The translations under genes were made by a program, and so were the position numbers. Positions 1,369-50,301 of a DNA stretch of 64,000 bases are shown in pieces. Source of the DNA: an uncultured Actinomycetes bacterium (GTDB lineage: Bacteria > Actinomycetota > Actinomycetes > Streptosporangiales > Streptosporangiaceae); NCBI GenBank assembly GCA_963707905.1, contig CAVPSA010000020.1, positions 4,320 through 68,319 on the forward strand, given 5' to 3'. Within the stretch, counting starts at the first letter, position 1. Each line of letters opens with the position of its first letter. Below the pieces are notes generated by a model that was not told the DNA's origin, ran no database searches, and was given only the letters and a program-made list of their open reading frames with translations.

Positions 1369-1812
1369 ATGAGCCCTAAGGCCTCCACTGTAAGCATGCC
1401 CGATCAACTGCCGTGGTGGCTGGAGACAGTCGCTAAACGCTTCGAGTCAGAGACGGGGATGCTTTGTCGGGATCAGTTCCCTGAACTGCGAGAGACTCAT
1501 CGACGTATGCTCCAGATGATTCCCCCGGAAGGGATTCGGATCACGGATCTTGCTGTGATAACAGGGAGGAGTAAATCCGGGCTGACTGAATTGCTTAATT
1601 GGCTAGAACAATCAGGATTCGTCTACAGCCGGAAAGATCCAACGGATAATCGGGTACGTCTTATTTCGCGCACCAAGTTGGGCGAGAGCGCGAACGACGC
1701 TATAAACGATAGTATCGCATCAATCGAACGAGAATGGCGCAATGAAATTGGTTCGGTCAATTACGACGGGATGAGGCTTGCACTTCGTCAACTCGGCTAC
1801 ACAGCATATTAG
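1369..1812 (+). CDS. MarR-family winged-helix transcriptional regulator
   Basis: 147-aa ORF starting 20 nt after the MTase stop. ITDLAVITGRSKSGLTELLNWLEQSGFVYSRKDPTDNRVRLISRT is a typical MarR wHTH. Low GC, like its neighbours. Confidence 0.75.
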   Translation: MSPKASTVSMPDQLPWWLETVAKRFESETGMLCRDQFPELRETHRRMLQMIPPEGIRITDLAVITGRSKSGLTELLNWLEQSGFVYSRKDPTDNRVRLISRTKLGESANDAINDSIASIEREWRNEIGSVNYDGMRLALRQLGYTAY

Positions 1813-1939
1813 CTCAGCTCGGGCACCGCGTCCCGGATAGGATGAGCGCCGTTCGCTCAGGGCGAATGCAGGCCGGGCTTCGTTAGCTCGCAGCTTGAAG
1901 CACGCTGCAAGCGTACCGCTCGACCGTGGGATCAGGATG

Positions 1940-2839
1940 TTAGGCGACGTTAGTGAGATCAGCCCGGAGTTTCATAAGAGCAGATGCTTCAAGCGATGCG
2001 ACCTTCTTACGGTTCATGCCTAGTGTCTTTGCAATTGCGCTATGCGAGAGCGGACGCTGACTGATCATTCCGTATCTCAGTTCTATTATCGTTCGCTCGT
2101 CGGCTGTAAGATTCGCTAGAGCCGAAGATAGAGCTTGCCGTGTCTCGTTGATCGCAAACAATTGCGGAGGTGAGAGCTCTGCTTCGTCTATTAGAATTTC
2201 CTCGATCGTAACTTGCCTATCAGGCAGTGACGAATGGATGCTTATTGGTGTTCGCCCGAGTTCACGGAGCCGGATTATTTCGCTTTCCGATATTGAAAGC
2301 TTTTCTGAGATTTCGCGATTCGTCGGTTCACGATTTAGTTGAAGTGCCAGTTTAGTGGCTGCCATACGAAGGCGAACTTCGTCTGCATGAACAACTGAAG
2401 GCAGGCGGATGAGACGTGATTTTGTGCGCATGGCGACAGTCAAGGCCTGTCGAATCCACCACGCTGCAAAGGTGGAGAATTTGACTCCTCGGGTAAAGTC
2501 GAACTTGGCAATCGCGGTCATCAAGCCTAGGTTACCCTCTTGAATGAGGTCGGCAAGGTCGAGCCCGCGGCCGACGTAACGTCTTGCAATGCTCACCACG
2601 AGGCCCAGATTGGCTTCATGCATTTGTTGGTATGCCAGCTCCCCGCGGCGCCTTACTTCCTCTAGCTCGGTTCGCTCGATACCTGATGTTATATCGAGCT
2701 TCTCCCTCGCAAGAACACCGGCTTCGATCCACTTCGCGAGCTCCACTTCCTGTTCAGCTCTCAGTAGCGGCCGTCGTGTTACTTGATCGAGGTACAGAGT
2801 CGGCGGTTCGGATGAATTACGACTACTAGAATCTTGCAT
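1940..2839 (-). CDS. RNA polymerase sigma-70 family factor, primary-like (group 1/2 architecture)
   Basis: Region 1.2: LYLDQVTRRPLLRAEQEVELAKWIE. Region 2: LVVSIARRYVGRGLDLADLIQEGNLGLMTAIAKFDFTRGVKFSTFAAWWIRQA. Regions 3 and 4: ERTIIELRYGM...AIAKTLGMNRKKVASLEASALMKLR. Start taken at ATG 2839; the ORF-track start at 2941 is also possible. Confidence 0.85.
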   Translation of the reverse strand: MQDSSSRNSSEPPTLYLDQVTRRPLLRAEQEVELAKWIEAGVLAREKLDITSGIERTELEEVRRRGELAYQQMHEANLGLVVSIARRYVGRGLDLADLIQEGNLGLMTAIAKFDFTRGVKFSTFAAWWIRQALTVAMRTKSRLIRLPSVVHADEVRLRMAATKLALQLNREPTNREISEKLSISESEIIRLRELGRTPISIHSSLPDRQVTIEEILIDEAELSPPQLFAINETRQALSSALANLTADERTIIELRYGMISQRPLSHSAIAKTLGMNRKKVASLEASALMKLRADLTNVA

Positions 2840-3473
2840 GGTTATTAAGGCCGTGATCTGGCAGGTTTTACCGGGCGGGCGGATGAATCGAATCCTAGCT
2901 GATGTCGTCCGGGTTAGCGGGACACTCGCGTGCGATCTCATGTCACAGAGGCGTGGACGTGCCGCTGTCTATCCGGTCTCTTGCTCTCCCGTTGATGGGT
3001 GTCACTCGAGCTGACCAAGATCGCCAGTGAGGATGGCCGCAGGGATCGTATGTGACGAGAAGCTCCCGAATGGGTTATCTCGCTCCGGGGCTGGGAGGAT
3101 GGCGCCACTCGTACAGGTCGCGCATTTTGCGCTGATCGTTGGGTGCTGGACCTGGGGCGACGGCCCGCTGGGACGACTCGCGCGCCGGCGCCGCCGTGGC
3201 CCGGAGGGCCAAAGGGCGGCGGGCGGCCACCCGGGGCGCAACATTCCGATGAGGCCAGGCGCGCTCCGCGCGCCCTCGATCAGTTATGGCTCAATTCGGC
3301 AGTGGTGTGGTGTGGCGTGGTCACACGGGCTGCGGCCCGGCCTGCGGCACAGCACAAGGCAGCCAGCAGAGGCCCGGCACCGGCACCGGGCGCGCCGGAT
3401 CACAAAGAGGGCACAAGATGGTAGTAGCGACAGGATCTGTGGGTGTCCCCGGTTCCGTCAGTTCTCGGACGGG

Positions 3474-3668
3474 CTACGTCTCGTCGAGCCTGCCGATCGT
3501 CGCACCGAGTTCGAGAGGGCCACAGTCCATAAGGTGCCGACCCAGGTCCTCAAGGATCGAGGGGTTCGCGGAGAGGATCTCCTTGGGGCTGGCCGCATCG
3601 GACACCTGATCACGTTTCAGCCCTTGTCGGGCTCGGTCGACGCCGAGCATTCGGTGTTCGTCGGCCAA
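3474..3668 (-). CDS. Hypothetical small protein (64 aa, TTG start), function unknown
   Basis: ORF immediately downstream of the toxin remnant and in its frame. Hand-counted GC3 is ~75% and the composition is protein-like (LGVDRARQGLKRDQVSDAASPKEILSANPSILEDLGRHL). I recognise no family. Confidence 0.25.
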   Translation of the reverse strand: MADEHRMLGVDRARQGLKRDQVSDAASPKEILSANPSILEDLGRHLMDCGPLELGATIGRLDET

Positions 3669-3749
3669 GAACCCGAGCGGGTGGGGGAGCCGGTGGCAAG
3701 CAGCGAAGTTGGCCGGGGTGAGTGGGTGCCCTGGGGTCGGTTCCTGGGC

Positions 3750-3966
3750 TCATCGCTCTATGGTAATCACATCACCATCGATGACGTACAAAATCCGATA
3801 GCGGTCGACTCGCAGTCGGTGATATCTCCCTCTATGGAATCCTTCGGCGGGGAGTGGGTCTTCGGCTAAGCCTGCGACGGCGGCGCCAATCGCTCGCATA
3901 GCGTCCTGATCACGCAGGAAACCGGCGGGCTGAGGCCGCAGCCACCGGGGTCCACCGGATCTTCAC
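3750..3966 (-). pseudogene. RelE/ParE-family toxin, disrupted by a single extra base
   Basis: The GTG at 3966 overlaps the antitoxin stop (GTGA). Frame A reads VKIRWTPVAAASARRF and then hits a stop at 3910-3912. The +1 frame continues LRDQDAMRAIGAAVAGLAEDPLPAEGFHRGRYHRLRVDRYRILYVIDGDVITIER*. The locus is 217 nt (72 codons plus 1 nt). The YRLRV..YRILY..D motif is typical of ParE/RelE. Confidence 0.65.
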
Positions 3967-4214
3967 TGGTCGCTGCCGAGCAGCTCGGCCATGACCTCCT
4001 CGTGTGACAGCGCGCCTGGGCACCCGGCAGCGACCCACTCGTCATGGGCGGCGAGCGTGGCCTCGATCTCTGCCTCTTCTAGTGCTTCGGGGGAGGCATG
4101 CCGCTCGACGGCCCGCAGTCGCCGCAGCTCGGGCAGAGGGACGATGGCGGCCGCCTCACCACCCAGATGGATCACCTCGTAAGGACCAGGATCACTGACA
4201 GGCGACGCGCTCAT
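3963..4214 (-). CDS. Type II antitoxin (Phd/YefM-like), cognate to the downstream ParE/RelE remnant
   Basis: 83-aa ORF directly upstream of the toxin, with a 4-nt overlap. VIHLGGEAAAIVPLPELRRLRAVE resembles the Phd/YefM N-terminal region. The C-terminus is acidic. Confidence 0.55.
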   Translation of the reverse strand: MSASPVSDPGPYEVIHLGGEAAAIVPLPELRRLRAVERHASPEALEEAEIEATLAAHDEWVAAGCPGALSHEEVMAELLGSDQ

Positions 4215-4376
4215 GGCGACACGGTACCGGGAACCTGTGACATCGGAAAGTCATCGAACCGCCCTCTTGGCAGTCGCTCCGTGAGCGCCGTGCGGGACAC
4301 CTTCGCAGGTAATGCACCGCGGACAGTCGCTCACTGCAAGCTGTCCCCTACGGACGATCTGTATCGGCCCAGGTCG

Positions 4377-4450
4377 CGCGCCTGGCAGGATTCGAACCCG
4401 CGACCCGCTGCTTAGAAGGCAGCTGCTCTATCCGGCTGAGCTACAGGCGC
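4377..4450 (-). tRNA. tRNA-Arg (anticodon UCU)
   Basis: Minus strand reads GCGCCTG-TA-GCTC-AGCCGGATA-GAGC-A-GCTGC-CTTCTAA-GCAGC-GGGTC-GCGGG-TTCGAAT-CCTGC-CAGGCGC-G. This gives a perfect 7-bp acceptor stem, D, anticodon and T stems, U33 and A37 flanking UCU, and a TTCGAAT T-loop. CCA is not encoded. Confidence 0.95.
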
Positions 4451-4689
4451 CTACCGAACGTATTGTGCAGGATCCAGGTAACGCCCAGGCCACATCGCCT
4501 GGATAACGGCCATGATCGTGACTTCTCAGGCGTCCCGGTGAGGTCCCGCCTGACCGGCCCCGGGCGGCGCGCGGCATGGCTGGTGGTGTACCCCGGGCCT
4601 GGCGTTCGGCATGATTGAAGTGCACGAAGCGCAAGGCCTGGGGCCTTCCCCGGCCACCTGGCGCCGCGCAGTGCCCCGAGGAGGTCACC

Positions 4690-5958
<1,269 letters not shown>

Positions 5959-5971
5959 GGCTGCCGAGGCT

Positions 5972-5987
5972 GGCCCAGGCCTGGGCC
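5972..5987 (+). terminator. Perfect 16-nt GC palindrome just after the glyA stop (candidate terminator hairpin, no U-tract)
   Basis: GGCCCAGGCCTGGGCC, 14 nt downstream of the glyA stop. Confidence 0.3.
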
Positions 5988-6053
5988 TGATCAGGGGGAT
6001 GGCTGCCCTGAGGGAACCTGTCGGCCCTCAGCTTGGACGAAGGAGATCAGGCC

Positions 6054-7769
6054 ATGCGCTCAGACCCCCAGCCGGTGATCCGGTGGAACTCTGCAGAACG
6101 GGTATGGGAGACCGGCTGCCGGGGTTACAGCGTGCTCAGCGACCCCCGGCTGAACAAGGGCACCGCGTTCACCGACTCCGAGCGCGCCGCGCTGGGATTG
6201 ACCGGCCTGCTGCCATCCCGGGTCCTGACGCTGGAACAGCAGGCCGAGCGCGTCTACCTGCAGTGCTCGCAGCAGCCGACCGCCATCGACAAGAACCTCT
6301 ACCTGACCGCACTGCACGACCGCAACGAGGTGCTGTATTACCGGGTACTGACCGACCACCTCAGCGAGCTGCTGCCAATCGTCTACACCCCTACGATCGG
6401 CGAGGCCATCCAGCATTACAGCCACCAGTACCGCCGCCCACGCGGCGTCTATCTCAGCATCGATGCGCCCGGCCAGATCGAGACCGCCCTGCGCGCTTCT
6501 GGATTGTCTGCCGGCGACGTGGATCTCATCGTCGCAACCGACGCCCAGGCCATCCTCGGCATCGGCGACTGGGGGGTCGGGGGGATCGATATCGCGGTCG
6601 GCAAGCTCGCCGTCTATACCGCTGCGGCCGGCGTCGACCCGGCCCGAACCCTGCCGGTGGTGCTGGACGTCGGCACCGACCGGGCAGAGCTGCTTGAGGA
6701 CCCGCTGTATCTGGGCGTTCGTCACCAGCGGCCTGCCCAGGAGCCCTATGACGCCTTTATCGACGCCTACGTGACCGCCGTGCGCAAGGTCTTTCCCGGC
6801 GCTCTCCTGCACTGGGAGGATTTCGGGCCCGGCAATGCCCGGCGCATCCTGGACCGCTACCGCGATCACATCCTCACCTTCAACGACGACATGCAGGGCA
6901 CTGGCGCGGTCAACCTCGCCGCCGTACTGGCCGGCGCCCACGCCAGCCAGACCTCGCTGACCCAGCACCGCATTGTCATCTTCGGTTCCGGCACCGCCGG
7001 TATCGGCATCGCCGATCAGCTCTATCGCGCGATGACCAGCCAAGGGCTGGACACCGCCGCAGCGCGGGCACGGTTCTGGTGCCTGGACCGCCAGGGCCTG
7101 CTCACCGACGACATGGCCGGTCTGCGCGACTTTCAGGTCCGTTACGCCCGCCCCGCTACGGAGGTCGGCGACTGGCCGGGGCACGGGACCGCCAGCGGCA
7201 TCGGTCTTGCTGAGGTCGTGCGCCGCGTGCACCCGACCATCCTCATCGGCACCTCCACGATGCATGGCGCCTTCACCGAGGAGATTGTGCGGGAGATGGC
7301 CGCGCACGTGAACCGGCCCGTGATCCTGCCCATGTCCAACCCGACCAGCCTGTCCGAGGCGACCCCGGCCGACCTGATGGCCTGGACCCGCGGCCGCGCC
7401 CTCATCGCCACCGGGAGCCCGTTCGGCCCCGTCACCTACAAGGGCGTCACCTACCAGATCGGCCAGGCCAACAACGCGCTCATCTTCCCCGGCCTCGGTC
7501 TCGGCGCGCTCCTGTCCCGGGCCCGGCGCATTACCGACCACATGATCACCGCCGCCGCTGAGGTCGTCGCCGGACTCACCGACACCACCACGCCCGGCGC
7601 GCCTCTCCTGCCCCCTATCGACGACCTCCGCACCACCTCGGCCCAGGTCGCGCTCGCGGTGGCCCGGGCCGCCGCCCACGACGGCGTCGCCGGCCTGTCC
7701 GGCATCACCGCCGCCGCCGTGAGCGCGGCCATGTGGCAGCCCCGGTACGCCGCCGTACACGCCGTCTGA
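6054..7769 (+). CDS. NAD(P)-dependent malic enzyme
   Basis: LNKGTAFTDSERAALGLTGLLP, IVYTPTIGEA, FNDDMQGTGAV, GSGTAGIGIA and MSNPTS are malic-enzyme signatures. ATG at 6054 lies 8 nt after AGGAGA. Confidence 0.9.
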   Translation: MRSDPQPVIRWNSAERVWETGCRGYSVLSDPRLNKGTAFTDSERAALGLTGLLPSRVLTLEQQAERVYLQCSQQPTAIDKNLYLTALHDRNEVLYYRVLTDHLSELLPIVYTPTIGEAIQHYSHQYRRPRGVYLSIDAPGQIETALRASGLSAGDVDLIVATDAQAILGIGDWGVGGIDIAVGKLAVYTAAAGVDPARTLPVVLDVGTDRAELLEDPLYLGVRHQRPAQEPYDAFIDAYVTAVRKVFPGALLHWEDFGPGNARRILDRYRDHILTFNDDMQGTGAVNLAAVLAGAHASQTSLTQHRIVIFGSGTAGIGIADQLYRAMTSQGLDTAAARARFWCLDRQGLLTDDMAGLRDFQVRYARPATEVGDWPGHGTASGIGLAEVVRRVHPTILIGTSTMHGAFTEEIVREMAAHVNRPVILPMSNPTSLSEATPADLMAWTRGRALIATGSPFGPVTYKGVTYQIGQANNALIFPGLGLGALLSRARRITDHMITAAAEVVAGLTDTTTPGAPLLPPIDDLRTTSAQVALAVARAAAHDGVAGLSGITAAAVSAAMWQPRYAAVHAV

Positions 7770-33891: not shown

Positions 33892-33928
33892 CGCGGGGCG
33901 CGCCGGGGTGGCTGGCGCGCCGGCGCTC

Positions 33929-33980
33929 GACCGGTTAACGTCCCGGGCTGACCGGTTAACGTCCCGGGCTGACCGGTTAA
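33929..33980 (+). repeat. 21-bp tandem repeat x2.5 (gaccggttaacgtcccgggct), each copy containing the GGTTAACC-like palindrome
   Basis: Copies at 33929, 33950 and 33971 (partial), located between the rnj stop (33891) and the ftsK start (34046). Confidence 0.9.
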
Positions 33981-34045
33981 GCCGAGGGCGAGAGGCGCGG
34001 CGTGTCTTTCGCCCGGATCCGCGGGTACTCGTTACCGTGGTAATC

Positions 34046-37000
34046 ATGGCGACCCGTGTCCCAAAGACTGGTGGGTCAAAGGGCGGTGTGTCGCAGGGCG
34101 GCGCCCGCCCGCAGGGCAGGACGGCCTCGCGGCCCCGGGCAGCGGGCACCTCGCAGCGCACCCGGGCCAGCAGCAACAGCCGGGCGCCCGCCCGGGGGCG
34201 CGGCAAGGGTGCCAAGGGCCGGGGCGGGAACCAGCGCGGCAGGACGGGCCGGCCGCAGCGGCGGCAGCCGGCCAGCAACGGGTTCCTGATCCTGTTCGGG
34301 TGGCTCGCCAGTGCTCTCGCCGCCGCCTGGATGCTGGCCGCGCACGCGGTCGGGTTCGCCGCCCGGGGGCTGGGCCGCAGTGCGGCAGACCTGGACCCGA
34401 TGCACCGCAGAGACGGGGCCGGGCTCACCTTTCTCGGTGCGGCCCTGGTGGTCGCCGCCACCACCTGGTTTCACCTGGGCAATGCCGTCGGCAAGCTGAT
34501 GACCGACGTGGTCCGCGGCGGGTTCGGCTCCATGGCCTGGGCCCTGCCGGTGCTGCTCGGCCTGCTGGCCTGGCGGTACCTGCGGCATCCGGACCGGAAC
34601 GCGGAGACCGGGCGGATCGTCATCGGCGGGCTGGCGCTGACCGTGGGTGTGCTCGGCCTGGTGCACATCGCGCACGGCACGCCGTCGCCGGCCAACGGTG
34701 CGGGCGCGATCCAGGCCGCCGGGGGCTTCATCGGCTACTTCGCCTCGGCGCCGCTCGTCGCGGCCGTCACGCCCTGGGTCGCGGCGCCGCTGCTGGCGCT
34801 GGTCTGCGGGTTCGGGCTGCTGGTGATCACCGGCACCCCGCTGCACCGGGTGCCGGAACGCCTCGCCGGGCTGCGCGGCGCCTATCCGGAGGACGAGGCG
34901 GGGGAGGCGGGGGGCAAGACGTCCGCGCTCGGCCGCGGCGGTCGCAAACGGCCCACGGCCATTGAGGCGGGCGATCATGTCAAGCCATACGACACCCCGC
35001 TCCTAGGTGGTCCCGGCGGTGCAGCGGGTACCGGCAGGCCCAGGGGCAAGGGCCCGGTGCTGGAGGAGCCGTCCCGCCCCGCGGGAGCGGCCGCCGCCGG
35101 GCTGGAGGGCTCCGGGGATACCGAGGGCCTGCTCGATGCTCTGGGATTCGGGCCACCGGGAGCCGCCCGCAAACCGGGGCAGCCACTGGAACACCTGGGG
35201 CCGCCCAAGGGCGAGCAGCTCACGCTCGCCGGGGCGAGCGACGCCAGCTACACGCTGCCGCCCGCCGCGCTGCTCAAGCCGGGCACCGCGCCAAAGGTGC
35301 GGACCGGGGCCACCGACGTGGTGATGCGTGCCCTGACCGAGGTGCTCGAACAGTTCGACGTGGATGCCACGGTCACCGGCTTCACCCGCGGGCCGACGGT
35401 CACCAGGTACGAGATCACCCTGGGCCCGGCCGTCAAGGTGGAACGGGTCACCCAGCTCACCAGGAACATCGCCTACGCGGTGAAGAGCGCGGACGTGCGG
35501 ATCGTGTCCCCGATCCCGGGCAAGTCCGCGATCGGGGTGGAGATCCCCAACACCGACCGCGAGATCGTCAGCCTCGGCGACGTGCTGCGCTCACCGGTCG
35601 CGCTGTCCGACCACCATCCGATGGTGGTGGGCCTGGGCAAGAACGTCGAGGGCGCCACGGTCATCGCCAACCTCGCGAAGATGCCTCACATCCTGATCGC
35701 TGGGGCGACCGGGGCGGGCAAGGCGCTCGCTCTCGACACACCGATTCCGACCCCGCGCGGCTGGACGACCATGGGTGAAGTCCGGATAGGCGACCGGGTC
35801 TTTGATGAGAACGGCGAGCCATGCCTGGTGACCGGGGCTACCCCAGTCATGCACGGTCGGCCGTGTTACGAGGTCGAGTTCTCCGACGGCACCGTCATTG
35901 TCGCGGATGCTGAGCACCTGTGGCGGACCGATACAGCAGCGGGACGTCAGCGGCGTGGCCGGCCTCCCCGGGGTGTTCTGTATTGGTCTTCGGCGGATGT
36001 CGCTCAGGTGTCCGAGCGGGCAGCCGAGGTTCTTGGTGAACCGGACCGGCTCATCGGCACCGCCGAGGTGATAGCCGATGTCGGCGATCAGTTCCGCAAT
36101 GCGATCTACCGGGCGGCTATGTCCCTTCCAAATGAGGGACGTGTAATCCGGCCGACGTACCGCCGAGCAGGGCGCGAGGTCGGGTTCTGGGCGCCGGCGT
36201 ACTCCCGGCAGCTGCTCTACAAGGCACTCGTGGAACGCATCAGCGTGCCCGCTGGCGCAAGCCGCGTCCGCCCAGCCGATGCCGAGCCGGTGACGACTGC
36301 CCAGATCGCCGCGTCGCTTCGCACGTGGGGGCGGTTCAATCATTCGGTCGCGCTGTGTGGGCCGCTCCACTACCCCGAGCGGGACCTGCCTGTGGCTCCT
36401 TACACGTTTGGCTGCTGGCTCGGCGACGGGGGCACGATGACTGCCGGGTTCACGTGTGCCGACGAAGAGATACTGGAACACATTCGTAACGACGGGTACG
36501 TGATCACCCATCACGCCAGCACCCGCATCCAGTACACGATTTCGAACAGTCCCGAGCGTGAGCGGCGCATCGCTGAAGCGCTCGAACTGGCAGCTCAGGG
36601 GATGAGCGTGGAGCGGGCCGCACTTCATGCGGGTGTCGGCCTCTCCGCTGTTCTGCGTGCAGCGGGTGGCCGCTTCCCGCAAGGGCGAAGAGGTACCTCC
36701 GTCGCGGGCGCGCCGCCCCGTGCGCGCTACCGGACGCTCAGCAGAATTTTCCGGGAGCTTGGGCCAAAGCACATTCCTGAGGAGTATCTGCATGCGTCCG
36801 TCTCACAGCGCCGTGCCTTGCTCGCCGGGCTGCTTGACACGGACGGCTACTGCAGCCCCAGAGGAATGGTGGAGTTCGCGGTCACCAACCGGGATCTCGC
36901 ATACGGAGTTCTGGAATTGGTGCTTGGCCTTGGATATAAAGCCACACTGCGAACCAAGCCCTGTCATGGCCGCTTCGAGAGCACGTCAACTGCCTACACC

Positions 37001-38191
37001 GTTGGCTTCACGCCGCACGAGCCAGTGTTCCGGCTCAGCCGCAAGCTGGCACGGCAGGGTCTGGCTAACCCAGGTAGCACGGCACGGCGGCGATACATAG
37101 TCGATGTCCGGCCCATCGAGTCGGTGCCGGTCCGCTGCATTGCGGTCAGTAGCTCTAGCCGCATGTACCTGGCGGGCCGGTCATGTGTGCCGACACACAA
37201 TTCGACCTGCGTCAACGGACTGATCACGTCGATCTTGCTGCGGGCTACGCCGGACGACGTGCGGATGATCCTGATCGACCCCAAGCGGGTGGAGCTGTCG
37301 CACTACCAGGGCATCCCGCACCTGATCACGCCGATCATCACCAGCCCGAAGAAGGCCGCCGAGGCGCTGAGCTGGGTGGTCGGGGAGATGGACCGGCGCT
37401 ACGACGACCTGGCCGCGTCCGGGTTCCGGCACATCGACGACTTCAACAAGGCGGTCCGTGCGGGCAAGCTCACCCCGCCGCCGGGCAGCGAGCGCATCTA
37501 CCTGCCGTACCCGTACCTGCTGGTGATCGTGGACGAACTGGCCGACCTGATGATGATCGCGCCCAGGGACGTGGAAGACGCCGTGGTCCGGATCACCCAG
37601 CTCGCCCGGGCCGCCGGCATCCACCTGGTGCTCGCCACCCAGCGCCCGTCGGTGGACGTGGTGACGGGGCTGATCAAGGCCAACGTGCCATCCCGGCTGG
37701 CCTTCGCCGCCGCGAGCGCCACCGACAGCCGGGTCATCCTGGACCAGACCGGCGCGGAGAAGCTCATCGGCCAGGGTGACTCGCTGTTCCTGCCGATGGG
37801 GGCGAGCAAGCCACTGCGGCTGCAGAACGCGTTCGTCACCGAGAAGGAGATCAGGGAGATCGTCGCGCACTGCTGCAAGCAGGCGCAGCCGGCCTACCGC
37901 GAGGATGTCGCCGTGCCCGAGGGCAAGGCCCGCGAGATCGACCCCGACATCGGCGACGACCTCGACGACCTCGTCCGGGCCGCGGAACTCGTGGTCAGCA
38001 CGCAGTTCGGCTCCACCTCGATGCTGCAGCGCAAGATGCGGGTGGGCTTCGCCAAGGCCCGGCTGATGGACCTGCTGGAGAGCCGGGGCATTGTCGGGCC
38101 CAGCGAGGGTTCCAAGGCGCGCGACGTGCTGGTGCTTCCGGATGATCTGCCCGGTTTGCTGGCATCTCTGCGAGGTACCGGGGACGATTGA
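34046..38191 (+). CDS. ftsK: DNA translocase FtsK, interrupted in-frame by a 493-aa intein in the Walker A motif
   Basis: R/G-rich N-terminus, 4 TM helices, linker. Motor domain: [14 protein letters not shown] / intein / [32 protein letters not shown] ... [13 protein letters not shown] ... [24 protein letters not shown]. Gamma (winged-helix) domain at the C-terminus. ATG at 34046. Confidence 0.92.
35723..37201 (+). mobile_element. FtsK intein (493 aa) with a LAGLIDADG homing-endonuclease domain; class-3-type hallmarks
   Basis: Begins [14 protein letters not shown] (Ala1, block A) immediately after GATGAGK. Block B is DAEHLW (His B10, Trp B12). LAGLIDADG motifs: FGCWLGDGG and [11 protein letters not shown]. 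Block F is VPVRCIAV (Cys at F4). Block G is SCVPTHN (Thr G5, His-Asn) followed by the +1 Ser of STCVNG. Confidence 0.85.
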
Positions 38192-44686: not shown

Positions 44687-46024
44687 TCAGCCGCGCAGGC
44701 GCAGGCCGCGGGGGGTCGGCCGGAAACCCGCATCGGCGAGGGCCTGGGCCAGCGGCGTGTCGTAGACCCCGGTGCCGTCGGCCCGCTCCACGGTGAGACG
44801 GCCCAGCGCACCGCCCCGCACCGCCTCGGCAAGCCCCGCCGCCGCCGGGACGAGCACCGCCGGGTCGCTGGTCCAGGAGAGCAGGGTCTTGCCGCCGCGC
44901 TCCACATAGAGCACGAGCTTCCCATCGGACAGCACCACGAGCGCGCCCGCCTTGCGGCCGGGACGGTGTGCCCCGGGCACCTCGCCGGGCCGTGGCGGCC
45001 AGGGCAGGGCCGCGCCGAACGCGTTCGCCGGGTCCGCCGCCGCGAGCACCGTGACCGGCGGCCCGGTCCCCGCGGTTGCGTTCCCCGAAGGTCCGGTGCC
45101 CCCGGAAAGCCCGGTGCCTGTCGCCGCGGTTGCGGTCCCGGCGCCCCCATCCCAGGCCGCTGGGTCTCGGGCTGCGGCAGTCCCGCTCGCGGCCCCGCCG
45201 CGCCCGCCGCCAAAGGCCTCCGCGTCTCCGGCTGCGGTGGTCCCGCTCGTGGCCCCGTCGCGCCCGCCGCCAAAGGCCTCCGCGTCTCCTGCCGGAGCAC
45301 CCCAGGCCGCTGGGTCTCCCGCCGCGGCGCTCCCCGCTGCCGGGTCACCGGTTCCGGCGCCCTCATCGGCCCAGATGGCGCCCTCCGGCCAGGAAACTCC
45401 CTCCGGCCAAGCCGGACCCGCCGGCTGGGCAGCACCCGGGAGCCCGGCGGCACCCGCCGGGCGGGCAGCGGCCGCCGGCCGGGAAACAGCGCCGGCCGGC
45501 AGCGGGCCAGTCGGCGGCGGCTGGCCGGGCCAGCGTGGCTGCCCGGTACCGGCGGGCGGGCCGGCCGCGGCCGCCTCCTGGGCCGAGGCGACAGCCCGCA
45601 TCCGGTCCACCGCGCCGGGCAGGGCGAACTGCGCCGCGCCGAGCCCCTCCACGAAGTACCCGCGACGGCACTGCCCGGCCTCCTCCATGGCCCGCAGCAC
45701 CGGGTACAGCGCACCGAACCCTCCGGGTACGCGCTCGGCCACCACCGAGCCACGGGTGACGATGCCGTGCCGGTCGAGCAGTGCCTGCGCGATGGCGTGC
45801 GAGCGCCGGGTGGGGTCGGGATCCCGGTCGGGCAGCAGCGACCACCGCCCGGTCACCGTCGGCGGCCCGGTCCGCGTGGGCACCACCGGCCGGCCGTACC
45901 CGCGCCTGCGGGCACCGATCCGGCCCGAACGGCCCGCCATCCTAATGCTGCTCCCCGGGGCCACACCGGCGCCGCCGGGCCCCCGGCGCCGGGCCCGCGC
46001 CACCCTGGCCCGCGCCGGGGCCAC
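44687..46024 (-). CDS. lhr: Lhr C-terminal segment in a separate, overlapping reading frame (probable frameshifted continuation of lhr)
   Basis: TGPPTVTGRWSLLPDRDPDPTRRSHAIAQALLDRHGIVTRGSVVAERVPGGFGALYPVLRAMEEAG...GFRPTPRGLRLRG is the conserved Lhr tail as I recall it from mycobacterial Lhr. Overlaps the upstream ORF by 83 nt in the +1 frame. Confidence 0.7.
   Translation of the reverse strand: MAPARARVARARRRGPGGAGVAPGSSIRMAGRSGRIGARRRGYGRPVVPTRTGPPTVTGRWSLLPDRDPDPTRRSHAIAQALLDRHGIVTRGSVVAERVPGGFGALYPVLRAMEEAGQCRRGYFVEGLGAAQFALPGAVDRMRAVASAQEAAAAGPPAGTGQPRWPGQPPPTGPLPAGAVSRPAAAARPAGAAGLPGAAQPAGPAWPEGVSWPEGAIWADEGAGTGDPAAGSAAAGDPAAWGAPAGDAEAFGGGRDGATSGTTAAGDAEAFGGGRGGAASGTAAARDPAAWDGGAGTATAATGTGLSGGTGPSGNATAGTGPPVTVLAAADPANAFGAALPWPPRPGEVPGAHRPGRKAGALVVLSDGKLVLYVERGGKTLLSWTSDPAVLVPAAAGLAEAVRGGALGRLTVERADGTGVYDTPLAQALADAGFRPTPRGLRLRG
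45181..45292 (-). repeat. 60-nt tandem duplication inside the Lhr C-terminal low-complexity insert (encodes AAGDAEAFGGGR(D/G)GA(T/A)SGT x2)
   Basis: Plus-strand unit tcccgctcg(c/t)ggccccg(c/t)cgcgcccgccgccaaaggcctccgcgtctcc... at 45181 and 45241. Confidence 0.85.
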
Positions 46025-49000
46025 GGGCGCCGCCGTTCACCCCGGAACCGGTTCCAGCCAGCGGGCCCGGCGCCGCGGGGACCGCCTGCCGTCCCGGCGG
46101 AACCCCGTCGAACACCGGCCGGCCGGTACCGAGAACCGTGCGCAACGGCGCCAGCGTGTCGTTGGTCAGCCGCCCCGCCCAGACCAGGTCCCAGATCGCC
46201 GCCGCCACGGCCATATCGGACAGCCCGCGCCAGTCATGGTCCCTGAGCATCCCGGCGACCCGGTCGGCCAGCATGCGGAAGAACAGGCCGCCGCCCCCCT
46301 CAAGCACCGCAAGGACCGCGTCATGCACCGGGGTCATGGTGATCTCGGCGGGCGGCGGCAACAGCAGCGGCACCGCCTGTGCGGGCGCGAGCACCACCCA
46401 GCCGTCCCCGCCCGGCAGCCCGCCCGCGCCGGACCACACGATCTCCCCGGCGGCGGTCAGTTCATCGAGCACGGCGGGCTGATAACCGCGAACCCGGCCG
46501 GGAAGCACGAGCGTCTCAAGCGCCGAGGCTGGCAGCGCCGCCCCGGCGAGCTGATCGACCACGTCGAAGACCGCATCCGCGCTGGCCGGGCGCCAGCCAC
46601 CGGCGGCCCGCCCGGCCGCGCCGCGGCGCGGGCCTCCGGCGGGCTGGCCCGCGTTCTGCCAGGCAGGCAGGAACGCCGCAAGTGCCTCCGGTGGCGCGGG
46701 CTCGACCTCCTTGCGGAGCTTGGCCAGGCAGCGGCGGCGCAGCATGCGGAGCACCTCCGCGTCGCACCACTCGGTGCCCCGGCCGCCGGGCACGAACTCG
46801 CCCTCGACGACTCGGTGCTCCGCGGCCAGGCGGTGCAGCGTGCCGGTGATGACCGCCACGCCCAGTCCGTACCTGGCGGCCGCCGCCGGTGCGGTGAACG
46901 GCCCATGGCCGCGGGCGTATCTGGCCACCAGGTCACCGAGCGGGTCGGGGACCGGCTCGGTGAACGCCACGGGCACCCCGGGCGGCAGCGGTACCCCGAG
47001 CGCGTCCCGCAGCCGGCCGGCGTCCTCGATGGCGGCCCACCGGGCCTCCCCGCCGATCCGCACCTCGATCGCCCGCCGGGAGGCGTCCAGCTCGGCCAGC
47101 CAGCCCCCGGCCATGCCCGGCTCGGCGCAGCGCTGCGCGACCTCCGCCGGTGACAGCGGCCCGATGACCCGGAGCAGATCGGCCACGGCCTCCAGGCTGC
47201 GGCAGGCGCGCTCGGCGGTGAGCCGCTGCAGTTCCGCCTCCACCTGGCCGACAACCGCAGGGTCGAGCAGCTCCCGCAGATCCGCCTGGCCGAGCAGTTC
47301 GGCCAGCAGCGAGGAGTCGAGTGCCAGCGCCTGCGCCCGGCGCTCGGCCAGCGGCGAGTCGCCCTCGTACATGAACGCGCCGACGTAGCTGAACAGCAGC
47401 GACCTGGCGAACGGAGAAGGGGCCGGAGTCTCCACCTCGACCAGCCGGACCTTGCGGCTGGCCAGGTCGCGCATCAGGCCGGCCAGGGCGGGCACGTCGA
47501 AGGTGTCCTGCAGGCATTCCCTGACCGTCTCAAGCACGACGGGGAACGTGCCGTACTTGGACGCCACGGCGAGCAGCTGGGCCGACCGCTGCCGCTGCTG
47601 CCACAGCGGGGACCGGTGGCCCGGCCGGCGCCGGGGCAGCAGCAGCGAACGGGCCGCGCACTCACGGAATCTGGACGCGAACAGCGCCGACCCGCCGAGC
47701 TCCGCGGTGACGAGCGGCTCGACCTCCTCGGCCGCCAGCTCGGCGATGCCGGCCGGCGGTGGCTCGTCGGTGTCCGGCACCCGCAGCACGATCCCGTCGT
47801 CGGTGTGCAGCGCCTGCACGTCCATGCCCTCGTAGCGCTCCCTGAGCCGCGCGGCGATCGCCAGCGCCCACGGCGCGTGCACCCGGGCCCCGTACGGGCT
47901 GTGCAGCACCAGCCGCCAGTCCCCGAGTTCGTCACGGAACCGCTCCATCACCAGCGTGCGGTCGTCGGGCAGGTAGCCGGTGGCCTCGCGCTGGCCGTCC
48001 AGGTACCGGATCAGGTTCTGCGCCGCCAGATCGTCCAATCCAGCAATACGCAGCCTCGTCGCAGCCTCCTCCCGGCCCGCTGCGGCGATTTCCCGGCAGA
48101 ACGCGCCCACCGCCCGGCCCAGTTCCGCGGGGCGGCCCATCGTGTCCCCGTGCCAGAACGGGAGCCTGCCCGGCTGCCCCGGCGCGGGGGAGACCAGCAC
48201 CTGGTCGGCGGTGATGTCCTCGATCCGCCAGGAACTGGCACCGAGCACGAACACGTCGCCGACCCGCGACTCGTACACCATCTCCTCGTCGAGTTCGCCG
48301 ACGCGGTGCGAGTTGCGGCCCTGACGCTGCGGGCCGGCCAGGAACACCCCGAACAGGCCCCGGTCGGGGATGGTGCCGCCGCTGGTCACCGCGAGCCGCT
48401 GCGCGCCAGGCCGGCCGCGCAAGGTGCCCGTCGTGCGGTCCCAGATCAGCCGGGGGCGCAGCTCCGCGAACTCCTCGCTCGGGTAGCGGCCCGCCAGCAT
48501 GTCAAGCACCGCGTCGAGCACGCCCCTGGTGAGCCCGCTGAACGGGGCCGCACGCCGGACCAGCCGCTCCACGTCGCCGACCTGCCAGTCGTCCATCGCC
48601 ACCATGGCGACGATCTGCTGGGCGAGCACGTCGAGCGGGTTGCGCGGCACGCGGAGTTCCTCGATCTCACCGTCCCGCATGCGCTGCACGACCACGGTCG
48701 CCTCGACCAGGTCACCCGGGTACTTCGGAAAGATCACGCTGCGGGACACGTCGCCCACCCGGTGGCCGGCCCGGCCGGTGCGCTGCAGCCCGCTCGCCAC
48801 CGACGGCGCGGACTCCACCTGGATGACCAGGTCCACGGCGCCCATGTCGATGCCGAGTTCCAGGCTGGACGTGGCCACCACGGCGGGGAGCCGCCCCGCC
48901 TTCAGTGCCTCCTCGATCTGCGCCCGCTCCTGCCGGGACACCGAGCCGTGATGTGCGCGGGCCACCTCGGCCGGGGCACCCGCCGCGGCGCCGGACTGCG

Positions 49001-50159
49001 CCATGATCTGAGCCGGCGGCCCCGGGGGCGGCGGCCCGCCTGGCCCGTCCAGGCCAGCGGCGGCCTCGTCGCGGGCCTGCGCCCGTTCCGCGGCGATCTC
49101 GTTCAGCCGGCCGCACAGCCGTTCCGCCAGCCGGCGTGAGTTGGCGAACACGATCGTCGACCGGTGCGCCTCGATCAGGTCGAGCACTTTCTCCTCGACG
49201 TGCGGCCAGATGGACCGCTGGCCCTGGGCGGCGTCACGCAGATCGGGTTCCCCGGCTTGTGCGCCACCGTCGGCCGGGCCGGCCGACGGGCGGAGGCTTG
49301 CGGGCGGCGGATCCGGGTCGGTCATGTCCTCGACCGGGACCACGATCCGCAGCTCCATCTGCTTGACGTAGGGCGGCGCCGCTATCGTCACCGGCCGGGC
49401 GCCGCCGAGGAACGTGGCCACCTCCTCCGGCGGCCGGACGGTGGCCGACAGCCCGATCCGCTGGGCCGGGCCGGCGGGCTCGTCCTGGCCGGGCTCGCCC
49501 GGCACGGCGCCGCTCCGCAGCGCGTCCAGCCGTTCCAGCGAGATGGCCAGGTGAGCGCCGCGCTTGTTGCCGGCCAGGGCGTGCACCTCGTCCACGATGA
49601 CGGTGTCCACGCCGCGCAGCGACTCGCGCGCCTTCGAGGTCAGGATGAGGAACAGCGACTCGGGCGTGGTGATAAGGATGTCCGGCGGCTTGCTGGACAG
49701 CCGCCGCCGCTCGTCGGCGCCGGTGTCGCCGGTGCGCACCGCCACCCGGATGTCCGGCTCGGGCACCCCGCGGCGCTGCGCGACCTGGCGGATCCCGGCC
49801 AGTGGGGCGCGCAGGTTCCGCTCGATGTCCACCGCAAGGGCCTTGAGCGGCGAGATGTAAAGCACCCGGCAGCGCTGCTTCGGATCGGCGGCCACCGGGC
49901 TGCTGGCCAGCCGGTCAAGCGCCCACAGGAACGCCGCCAGCGTCTTACCTGACCCGGTGGGCGCGATCACCAGCGTGTTGTCGCCGGCTGCGATGGAGGC
50001 CCACGCGCCCGCCTGCGCTGGAGTCGGCTCGGTGAACGCGCCGTTGAACCATTCCCTGGTCAGCGCGCCGAACCCGGCCAGCGGATCCGTGCCCGTGCCC
50101 GCGTCGTCGGCGCGCGCCCGTGACGGCGCTTCGCTCCTGGCTCGGGTCCTGGCGGGCAT
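45942..50159 (-). CDS. lhr: Lhr-family ATP-dependent helicase, N-terminal ~1400 aa (helicase core plus most of the C-terminal region); ends in a low-complexity stretch
   Basis: TEPTPAQAGAWASIAAGDNTLVIAPTGSGKTLAAF (motif I), VIVDEVHAL (DEVH), LSATV, HHGSVSRQER, and ATSSLELGIDMG followed by RTGRAGH (TGRAGR-type motif VI). ATG at 50159. Confidence 0.88.
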   Translation of the reverse strand: MPARTRARSEAPSRARADDAGTGTDPLAGFGALTREWFNGAFTEPTPAQAGAWASIAAGDNTLVIAPTGSGKTLAAFLWALDRLASSPVAADPKQRCRVLYISPLKALAVDIERNLRAPLAGIRQVAQRRGVPEPDIRVAVRTGDTGADERRRLSSKPPDILITTPESLFLILTSKARESLRGVDTVIVDEVHALAGNKRGAHLAISLERLDALRSGAVPGEPGQDEPAGPAQRIGLSATVRPPEEVATFLGGARPVTIAAPPYVKQMELRIVVPVEDMTDPDPPPASLRPSAGPADGGAQAGEPDLRDAAQGQRSIWPHVEEKVLDLIEAHRSTIVFANSRRLAERLCGRLNEIAAERAQARDEAAAGLDGPGGPPPPGPPAQIMAQSGAAAGAPAEVARAHHGSVSRQERAQIEEALKAGRLPAVVATSSLELGIDMGAVDLVIQVESAPSVASGLQRTGRAGHRVGDVSRSVIFPKYPGDLVEATVVVQRMRDGEIEELRVPRNPLDVLAQQIVAMVAMDDWQVGDVERLVRRAAPFSGLTRGVLDAVLDMLAGRYPSEEFAELRPRLIWDRTTGTLRGRPGAQRLAVTSGGTIPDRGLFGVFLAGPQRQGRNSHRVGELDEEMVYESRVGDVFVLGASSWRIEDITADQVLVSPAPGQPGRLPFWHGDTMGRPAELGRAVGAFCREIAAAGREEAATRLRIAGLDDLAAQNLIRYLDGQREATGYLPDDRTLVMERFRDELGDWRLVLHSPYGARVHAPWALAIAARLRERYEGMDVQALHTDDGIVLRVPDTDEPPPAGIAELAAEEVEPLVTAELGGSALFASRFRECAARSLLLPRRRPGHRSPLWQQRQRSAQLLAVASKYGTFPVVLETVRECLQDTFDVPALAGLMRDLASRKVRLVEVETPAPSPFARSLLFSYVGAFMYEGDSPLAERRAQALALDSSLLAELLGQADLRELLDPAVVGQVEAELQRLTAERACRSLEAVADLLRVIGPLSPAEVAQRCAEPGMAGGWLAELDASRRAIEVRIGGEARWAAIEDAGRLRDALGVPLPPGVPVAFTEPVPDPLGDLVARYARGHGPFTAPAAAARYGLGVAVITGTLHRLAAEHRVVEGEFVPGGRGTEWCDAEVLRMLRRRCLAKLRKEVEPAPPEALAAFLPAWQNAGQPAGGPRRGAAGRAAGGWRPASADAVFDVVDQLAGAALPASALETLVLPGRVRGYQPAVLDELTAAGEIVWSGAGGLPGGDGWVVLAPAQAVPLLLPPPAEITMTPVHDAVLAVLEGGGGLFFRMLADRVAGMLRDHDWRGLSDMAVAAAIWDLVWAGRLTNDTLAPLRTVLGTGRPVFDGVPPGRQAVPAAPGPLAGTGSGVNGGARGPGAGQGGAGPAPGARRRRCGPGEQH

Positions 50160-50301
50160 CCTTCCATCCTGCCCTGCCCTGCGGACAATTCCGCCCACGA
50201 GTGCCGGGCCGCCCGGCCAGCCGTACCACAGTCCTCCACCTGCGATGGGCATGAATATGACAGCGACGCCCTTAGAGGGGCACTAAATCCACATTCACAC
50301 T

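Follow-up and report, generated by a model that had tools for sequence, protein, structure and literature searches.

The window analysed here, a stretch of 64,000 nucleotides of contig CAVPSA010000020.1 (assembly GCA_963707905.1) from an uncultured soil actinomycete of the Streptosporangiaceae, carries an ftsK gene whose Walker A loop is split by an in-frame insert. The sequence makes it very probable that this insert, located between the Lys and the Ser of the Walker A loop, is a functional intein of class 3 that carries a LAGLIDADG homing endonuclease and belongs to a lineage sister to the mycobacterial/actinobacterial DnaB site-b intein (DnaBi1). The kind of element is known (class 3, DnaBi1-like lineage, the classic Lys|Ser P-loop position) and what is new is FtsK as the host. 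At the division septum FtsK acts as the motor by which chromosomes are cleared and resolved, and with an intein in its Walker A loop a working motor would exist only after protein splicing. An FtsK intein was not mentioned in the literature searched, a scope that excluded InBase and the supplementary tables of the main survey, and FtsK is not among the hosts listed in the main text of Novikova 2016.

The insert in the FtsK Walker A loop and its splicing blocks

The ftsK open reading frame (ORF) comprises 1427 codons when counted from the most upstream GTG, and 934 codons without the intein. The true start of the gene is uncertain, since the first ATG is found only at 34046. Pfam recognises FtsK_4TM, FtsK_alpha, FtsK_gamma and LAGLIDADG_3 in the product and matches the FtsK_SpoIIIE motor domain as two separate stretches, whereas NCBIfam identifies the exteins as DNA translocase FtsK and has no model that matches the intein part. 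The junctions of the insert lie between the codons AAG (Lys, 35720-35722) and GCG (Ala1, 35723-35725) on one side and between AAT (Asn493, 37199-37201) and TCG (Ser+1, 37202-37204) on the other (GATGAGK|ALALD...VPTHN|STCVNG). The GC content at third codon positions (GC3) is 0.72 in the intein versus 0.91 in the exteins. The features of the gene relevant to splicing are the following.

33908..38191, + strand: ftsK precursor ORF (Pfam, NCBIfam)
35702..35722, + strand: N-extein half of the Walker A loop, GATGAGK, with Lys605 as residue -1 (translation)
35723..37201, + strand: intein, Ala1 to Asn493, 493 codons (motifs and intein-free alleles)
35723..35761, + strand: splicing block A, without a nucleophile at position 1
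35864..35866, + strand: Cys48, counterpart of Cys48 of DnaBi1, invariant in all 74 relatives
35894..35932, + strand: splicing block B, with Asp62, His65 (B10) and Trp67 (B12)
37115..37174, + strand: splicing block F, with Cys472 at F4 as the predicted first nucleophile and Tyr482 as the equivalent of the zinc ligand Tyr128 of DnaBi1
37181..37201, + strand: splicing block G, SCVPTHN, with Thr491 (G5), His492 and Asn493
37202..37222, + strand: start of the C-extein, STCVNGL, with Ser+1 as second splicing nucleophile and Walker A Ser

The boundaries of the intein could be set by comparison as well as by motif, since intein-free proteins run unbroken across the junction. A search with the conceptually spliced motor domain recovered 120 FtsK proteins, all without the insert and 85-98% identical to the query, in which GATGAGK-STCVNG or a close variant is continuous. 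The closest of these intein-free alleles, up to 98% identical, match GATGAGKSTCVNG exactly, and in the C-extein the window shares 98.2% identity with the intein-free P0121 and 97.6% with P0122. The contig that encodes P0122 (L032) follows the window collinearly over dapA, rnj, ftsK, a RodZ-like gene and a radical-SAM (UPF0004/TRAM) gene, with DNA that is 91-95% identical, and its sole gross difference is a clean gap of 1479 bp (window 35722-37197 absent, to within 3 nt of microhomology). The predicted ligated product is thus exactly what the intein-free relatives encode, as follows from the 120 proteins and the collinearity of L032. The first-pass annotation of the window, made from the letters alone, had placed the junction at GATGAGK|...SCVPTHN|STCVNG; removal of the insert at these points indeed restores the host sequence of the intein-free alleles, and the coordinates and motifs quoted in that annotation were exact in codon position and translation.

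All four splicing blocks (A, B, F and G) are present in the insert, together with a C-terminal His-Asn and a Ser at +1. The top matches in a sequence search of the PDB were mycobacterial DnaB mini-inteins, i.e. DnaB-1 of M. chimaera (6RIX, E 7e-33; 6RIY, E 4e-32) and DnaBi1 of M. smegmatis (6BS8/6OWN, E 5e-31), in alignments that span residues 1-71/89 and the last 34-37 residues of the insert. The structure of DnaBi1, a class 3 intein within the P-loop of DnaB, has been solved (Kelley et al. 2018, PMC6195587). Its block F residue Cys118 acts as the first nucleophile and the C118A mutant is inactive, its Trp-Cys-Thr (WCT) triplet is formed by Trp67, Cys118 and Thr137, and Asp62-x-x-His65 takes the place of the usual TxxH (PMC6195587). 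A branched thioester on the block F Cys has also been demonstrated for the DnaB intein of phage Bethlehem. In the alignment Cys472 of the window intein corresponds to Cys118 and Thr491-His492-Asn493 to Thr137-His138-Asn139 of DnaBi1, while Cys48, Asp62, His65 and Trp67 carry identical numbers in the two inteins. The zinc-binding residues of DnaBi1 (Cys118, the backbone of Val119, and Tyr128; PMC7360933) find their counterparts in Cys472, Ile473 and Tyr482.

The class 3 assignment of the first-pass annotation is supported by these comparisons. It had pointed to an Ala instead of Cys or Ser as first residue (GCG at 35723, kept in 74 relatives), to His B10 and Trp B12 (H65 and W67, at the same positions as in DnaBi1), to a Cys at F4 (C472, aligned with the catalytic Cys118) and to a block G Thr-His-Asn followed by Ser+1 (T491, His492, Asn493, TCG at 37202). 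The signature triplet is therewith W67/C472/T491, and the alignment to DnaBi1 agrees with the assignment of the blocks. Conservation was evaluated over the 74 inteins of the family for which both junctions were available (34 in FtsK, 33 in DnaB and 7 in other hosts). Ala1, Cys48, His65, Trp67, the block F Cys, His492 and Asn493 are invariant in this set and Ser+1 is conserved; Asp62 is substituted in a single intein, and the lone exception to Thr491 is an alignment gap.

The endonuclease domain and the recoding of empty sites

Pfam places a LAGLIDADG_3 domain in the insert (34 bits, against a cut-off of 22.5). The two LAGLIDADG motifs reported in the first-pass annotation were both recovered with their catalytic Asp residues, of which D235 is kept in 34/34 and D374 in 33/34 of the FtsK inteins, and the model takes a PI-SceI-like fold.

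35933..36382, + strand: residues 71-220, helical/beta region between block B and the endonuclease core (model)
36383..37072, + strand: LAGLIDADG homing-endonuclease domain, residues 221-450 (Pfam, model)
36392..36436, + strand: first LAGLIDADG motif, catalytic Asp235
36548..36760, + strand: three-helix, helix-turn-helix (HTH)-like insert and disordered linker that separate the endonuclease halves, a segment repeatedly deleted in relatives (model)
36806..36850, + strand: second LAGLIDADG motif, catalytic Asp374

The AlphaFold2 model of the intein, built from an alignment of 39 sequences, has a predicted local distance difference test (pLDDT) score of 90.7 and a predicted template modelling (pTM) score of 0.78. 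As a whole chain it resembles the PI-SceI-type intein endonucleases (E 5e-15, TM 0.50-0.59), whereas its N-terminal 69 residues follow the solved DnaB inteins at 67-68% identity and a root mean square deviation of 0.6-0.8 A (on 6BS8, the N-terminal splicing half gives 0.6 A and 67%). Hedgehog/intein structures were among the fold matches, and a HINT fold is supported in the predicted model. Residues 71-220 have no match in Pfam and may constitute a DNA-recognition region; the HTH-like insert (residues 276-346) has only a sub-threshold match to HTH_23.

Among ten full-length copies of the intein the nonsynonymous-to-synonymous divergence ratio (dN/dS) is 0.08 for the N-terminal splicing part, 0.14 for the endonuclease and 0.13 for the C-terminal splicing part, with the highest value (0.21) for residues 71-220. 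At a dN/dS of about 0.14, the endonuclease region evolves under purifying selection. The synonymous divergence (dS) of the intein is about twice that of the exteins, a contrast that is uninterpretable because the codon bias of the two differs (GC3 as given above) and because gaps were taken to be absent from the extein alignment.

Occupied and empty ftsK alleles coexist at 91-98% identity. One pair, the occupied L018 and the empty L060, shows about 96% protein identity and nearly identical flanks at the insertion site; the intein seems to have been gained recently here, or lost precisely with no recoding, and the pair offers a candidate for a susceptible target sequence. The flanks of the window intein do not look like a co-conversion tract derived from its nearest intein relatives L001 and L027.

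The empty sites nearest to the window show a peculiar codon usage. In the nine closest intein-free alleles (L032, L042, L044, L050, L051, L039, L043, L062 and L063; C-extein 90-98% identical) the GC3 over the 24 codons of the site is 0.54-0.75, versus 0.84-0.93 for the gene as a whole, which places the site in the lowest 1-4% of the windows of its own gene. The corresponding values are 0.71-1.0 in more distant empty alleles and 0.67-1.0 (median 0.88) in occupied ones. In L032 the 20-codon windows of lowest GC3 within ftsK (0.40-0.45, versus 0.92 overall) cover the empty insertion site, and 9/12 and 7/12 codons differ from the window in the two bins that flank the junction, compared with 0-6/12 in other bins; the changes in the flanking bins are all synonymous. 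Likewise, 13/24 site codons of L062 differ from the window, versus 39/526 elsewhere. The recoded tract extends from codon -13 to +6, about 57 bp (the equivalent of window 35684-35722 joined to 37202-37219), and changes are nearly absent at codons -24 to -14 and +12 to +25. The recoded codons are synonymous and mostly end in A or T. No such tract occurs in the distant empty alleles or in the occupied ones. The recoded alleles differ from each other in the codons used, e.g. TCT, TCC or AGT for the essential Ser+1, where the window has TCG.

For the LAGLIDADG enzymes HO, WHO6 and VDE, minimal sites of 24-31 bp are cited, and one third of synonymous target changes conferred resistance (bioRxiv 10.64898/2026.08.13.744650). 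The recoded tract is of the same order of size as LAGLIDADG recognition sites, and the recoded empty sites suggest pressure by a homing endonuclease. Our preferred reading is that they arose by selection for, or by break-induced mutation towards, silent variants that resist the endonuclease. Three observations temper this reading. The nine alleles are related and so amount to few events. The ratio of synonymous divergence between the site and the rest of the gene is about 1.5-1.6 in all types of pairs (occupied/occupied, empty/empty and mixed), so that a synonymous excess as such is not specific to empty alleles; this baseline of roughly 1.5-fold probably reflects the predominance of four- and six-fold degenerate codons in the P-loop, and all that rises above it is the A/T shift and, in the nearest clade, an excess of 4- to 8-fold. 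And the flanks of L018 and L060 are not recoded. It is a tentative proposal, somewhat short of even odds, that the homing endonuclease is active in natural soil populations, is engaged in an arms race with its target, and has been escaped by the nearest empty alleles via synonymous rewriting of about 57 bp of the invariant Walker A coding sequence. If true, it would provide a clear natural example in which silent changes confer immunity to an intein endonuclease where the encoded protein is not free to vary. The occupied, empty-susceptible and empty-recoded alleles found in metagenomes make a natural system for the study of the homing cycle.

Predicted splicing route and alternative explanations

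By homology with DnaBi1 the following route can be predicted. The precursor motor would be unable to bind ATP properly and is expected to be inactive, as its P-loop is split by the intein. Cys472 (block F4) would attack the Lys605-Ala1 peptide bond to give a thioester branch, after which the N-extein would be passed to Ser+1. Asn493 would then cyclise with the help of His492 and release the intein, and an O-to-N acyl shift would restore the Walker A loop, GATGAGKSTCVNG. In DnaB the Walker A Ser coordinates Mg2+ (PMC6195587). The freed intein would be a site-specific endonuclease that cuts intein-free ftsK within some 30-60 bp around the GK|S codons, and repair of the cut empty allele would copy the intein in (homing).

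The intein interrupts only the motor domain of FtsK; upstream of it lie the N-terminal membrane/division domain, the linker and the alpha domain, which may act before splicing. A dependence of a presumably essential function on splicing, as stated in the first-pass annotation, is for this reason plausible for translocation. In DnaBi1, H2O2 induces a reversible disulfide between Cys48 and Cys118 (PMC6195587). Given the conservation of Cys48, Cys472 and Tyr482, splicing of FtsK is probably likewise under the control of oxidants (through a Cys48-Cys472 disulfide) and of zinc, each blocking it reversibly as in DnaBi1. The analogy raises the possibility that chromosome translocation is gated by oxidants or zinc via the FtsK intein, in the way that DnaB is via DnaBi1. 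The FtsK intein, with a DnaB sensor of oxidative stress and zinc as its nearest relative, could in this way couple chromosome segregation to redox or metal stress.

Several points weigh against the window insert being a functional intein with an active endonuclease. The first is the occurrence of independent deletions, with differing end points, at about residues 250-348 in at least 10 FtsK inteins (window about 36470-36765; L012, L020, L022, L023, L027, L028, P0009, P0015, P0019, P0024, P0026, P0032 and P0116). They take away the HTH-like insert and a portion of the first half of the endonuclease, and one of the carriers (L027) is a close relative of the window intein. The deletions look like repeated decay of the endonuclease toward mini-inteins, the degenerative phase that is expected of a homing cycle. 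They show that some lineages can do without the nuclease, whose activity may have been lost already in the window copy despite the intact motifs. In L026 and L028 parts of residues 82-182 are gone as well.

The deletions favour an intein that splices with a dead endonuclease, is inherited vertically and, if maintained at all, serves as a switch on chromosome translocation that responds to redox state or metals rather than as a mobile element. The broad correlation between intein and extein divergence across lineages and the conservation of the sensor residues point in the same direction, and L027 is the nearest intein relative of the window. However, the window copy is full length with both catalytic Asp residues present, the endonuclease is constrained among the full-length copies, presence and absence vary between alleles that are 91-98% identical, and the synonymous recoding of the nearest empty sites is hard to explain without a nuclease. 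We therefore consider a dead endonuclease unlikely, at perhaps one chance in a few, and retain the intein with a working endonuclease as the preferred interpretation.

A second point concerns the gamma domain of the window FtsK, which reads GFAKA-RLMD where all relatives have GFAKAGRLMD (38045-38071, gap between 38059 and 38060). A single GGC codon is gone from the GCCGGCCGG repeat, either by a genuine slippage deletion in this DNA-recognition domain or by an assembly error, and this casts a small doubt on the quality of the sequence or the function of the allele. Moreover, splicing, the block F branched intermediate and DNA cleavage are all inferred here. These two points could be taken to mean that the insert is a decayed, non-splicing relic in an ftsK copy that is a pseudogene or motor-dead, but with all catalytic residues intact and invariant, an uninterrupted ORF of 1427 codons, splicing blocks under strong purifying selection and the same arrangement kept in more than 30 genomes, such a relic is very improbable.

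The cysteines form the last point. FtsK-hosted inteins have Cys34 (35822-35824) in 33/34 cases and Cys488 (37184-37186) in 34/34, at positions that are occupied by Thr and by Met or Trp in the DnaB-hosted relatives, and the C-extein of the window has a Cys at +3 (37208-37210). These additional cysteines are without counterpart in DnaBi1, so the redox behaviour of the FtsK intein may differ; cysteines added near the active site could shift its redox or metal behaviour relative to DnaBi1.

A different splicing route, by class 2-like direct attack of the +1 residue on the N-terminal junction or from a hidden class 1 boundary, would also be compatible with Ala1, which by itself cannot separate class 2 from class 3, but it has very little to recommend it: the +1 residue is a Ser and not a Cys, the Trp-Cys-Thr triplet is complete, the closest homologue has been shown to need its block F Cys, and no upstream Cys or Ser can be residue 1 since the boundaries are fixed by the intein-free alleles.

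Relatives of the FtsK intein and comparison with known systems

The same FtsK intein was found at the same site in more than 30 public genomes and metagenome contigs, with matches down to E 1e-273. The 24 occupied loci parsed from GTDB genomes include many Streptosporangiales-like soil metagenome-assembled genomes (MAGs), Trebonia kvetii 15TR583 (Treboniaceae) and an Actinoplanes MAG, and the intein is free of stop codons in all of them. At 56-59% identity, the intein also occurs in about a dozen genomes of Micromonospora and Plantactinospora. Nearest to the window are three uncultured Streptosporangiales-type MAGs (L001, L021 and L027; 87-90% nucleotide identity). In these MFD MAG contigs many small indels break the ftsK frame outside the intein, and in L021 also inside; they are probably long-read assembly errors, and protein-level identities derived from these contigs are unreliable. 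An apparent incongruence between intein (88%) and C-extein (77%) in L001, at first taken for horizontal transfer, was withdrawn on these grounds: the DNA is 87-90% identical throughout, and the difference is an artefact of frameshift errors that corrupt the translation of an indel-rich assembly.

In the public genomes the element goes unrecognised or is annotated wrongly, and it appears to break the automatic annotation of ftsK. In Micromonospora sp. CPCC 205558 (L033; JBAKHR010000024.1, locus 1664-6478) the ftsK frame is continuous across the junction of N-extein and intein, whereas P0021, the protein on deposit (825 aa), has residue 2 of the intein as its first residue and the upstream half of FtsK is unannotated. 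Other NCBI entries from Micromonospora and Plantactinospora begin at Met17 of the intein.

A neighbour-joining tree groups the FtsK inteins together and separately from the DnaB inteins, with the exception of the divergent P0116; the bootstrap value for strict monophyly of all FtsK inteins is low (6/100) because of this outlier. Inteins of the same ALALDTP...PTHN family also occur at GK|T/S elsewhere (P0072, P0075, P0077, P0105 and P0063). These other hosts are DnaB-like paralogues (a DnaB N-terminal domain with AAA_25) and one further P-loop protein (P0063), whose intein is the nearest outgroup to the FtsK clade. Phage records contributed 439 more distant relatives, none above 41% identity, whose hosts are DnaB-like helicases, terminases and Catera gp206; none of these relatives lies within an FtsK-like gene. 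Class 3 inteins have been described to move between phage and actinobacterial P-loop ATPases (PMC5050341), and the distribution observed here fits that picture. One intein lineage has reached a second P-loop ATPase, unrelated to the first and with nothing but the GK|S/T core in common with it, and FtsK as a host supports the view of P-loops as stepping stones between hosts.

Elsewhere in the window, the ORF of 1446 codons at 45945-50282 (- strand) encodes an ordinary large helicase of the Lhr type, with DEAD, Helicase_C and DEAD_assoc domains as well as three Lhr winged-helix domains, and contains no intein.

Of the known systems, the intein in the P-loop of the RecA-fold ATPase RadA of Pyrococcus horikoshii, which according to its citation in PMC6195587 disrupts ATPase function until it is spliced, is comparable in position; it is archaeal, class 1 and presumably unrelated in sequence. 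PI-SceI (yeast VMA1) shares with the window intein the combination of a HINT splicing domain and an inserted LAGLIDADG endonuclease with two motifs, but is of class 1 (Cys1) and only 13-15% identical in sequence. The phage class 3 inteins (Bethlehem DnaB, Catera gp206 and the TerL P-loop) have the class 3 signature in common with it, and several are found at the same classic Lys|Thr/Ser P-loop position; the phage matches are all below 42% identity and none is hosted by an FtsK-like gene.

Finally, the closest systems are the DnaB site-b inteins of M. smegmatis (DnaBi1; 6BS8/6OWN) and M. chimaera (DnaB-1; 6RIX/6RIY), which are class 3 like the window intein and share with it the ALALDTP start, Asp62-x-x-His65-x-Trp67, the VPVRC block F, the PTHN end and Ser+1, as well as the position between the Lys and the Ser/Thr of the Walker A loop. 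The window intein also agrees with them in Cys48 and the zinc-ligand Tyr, and is 67-68% identical to them over the N-terminal splicing half. The window intein differs from these in its host, which is FtsK and not DnaB, in its length (493 aa with a full LAGLIDADG endonuclease, versus 139-146 aa for the solved DnaB mini-inteins) and in the additional Cys34 and Cys488 of the FtsK inteins, which form a clade of their own and are about 42-50% identical to the endonuclease-bearing DnaB inteins. On account of its host and its separate clade in the tree, the window intein is to be regarded as a homologue that stands outside the DnaB site-b allele.

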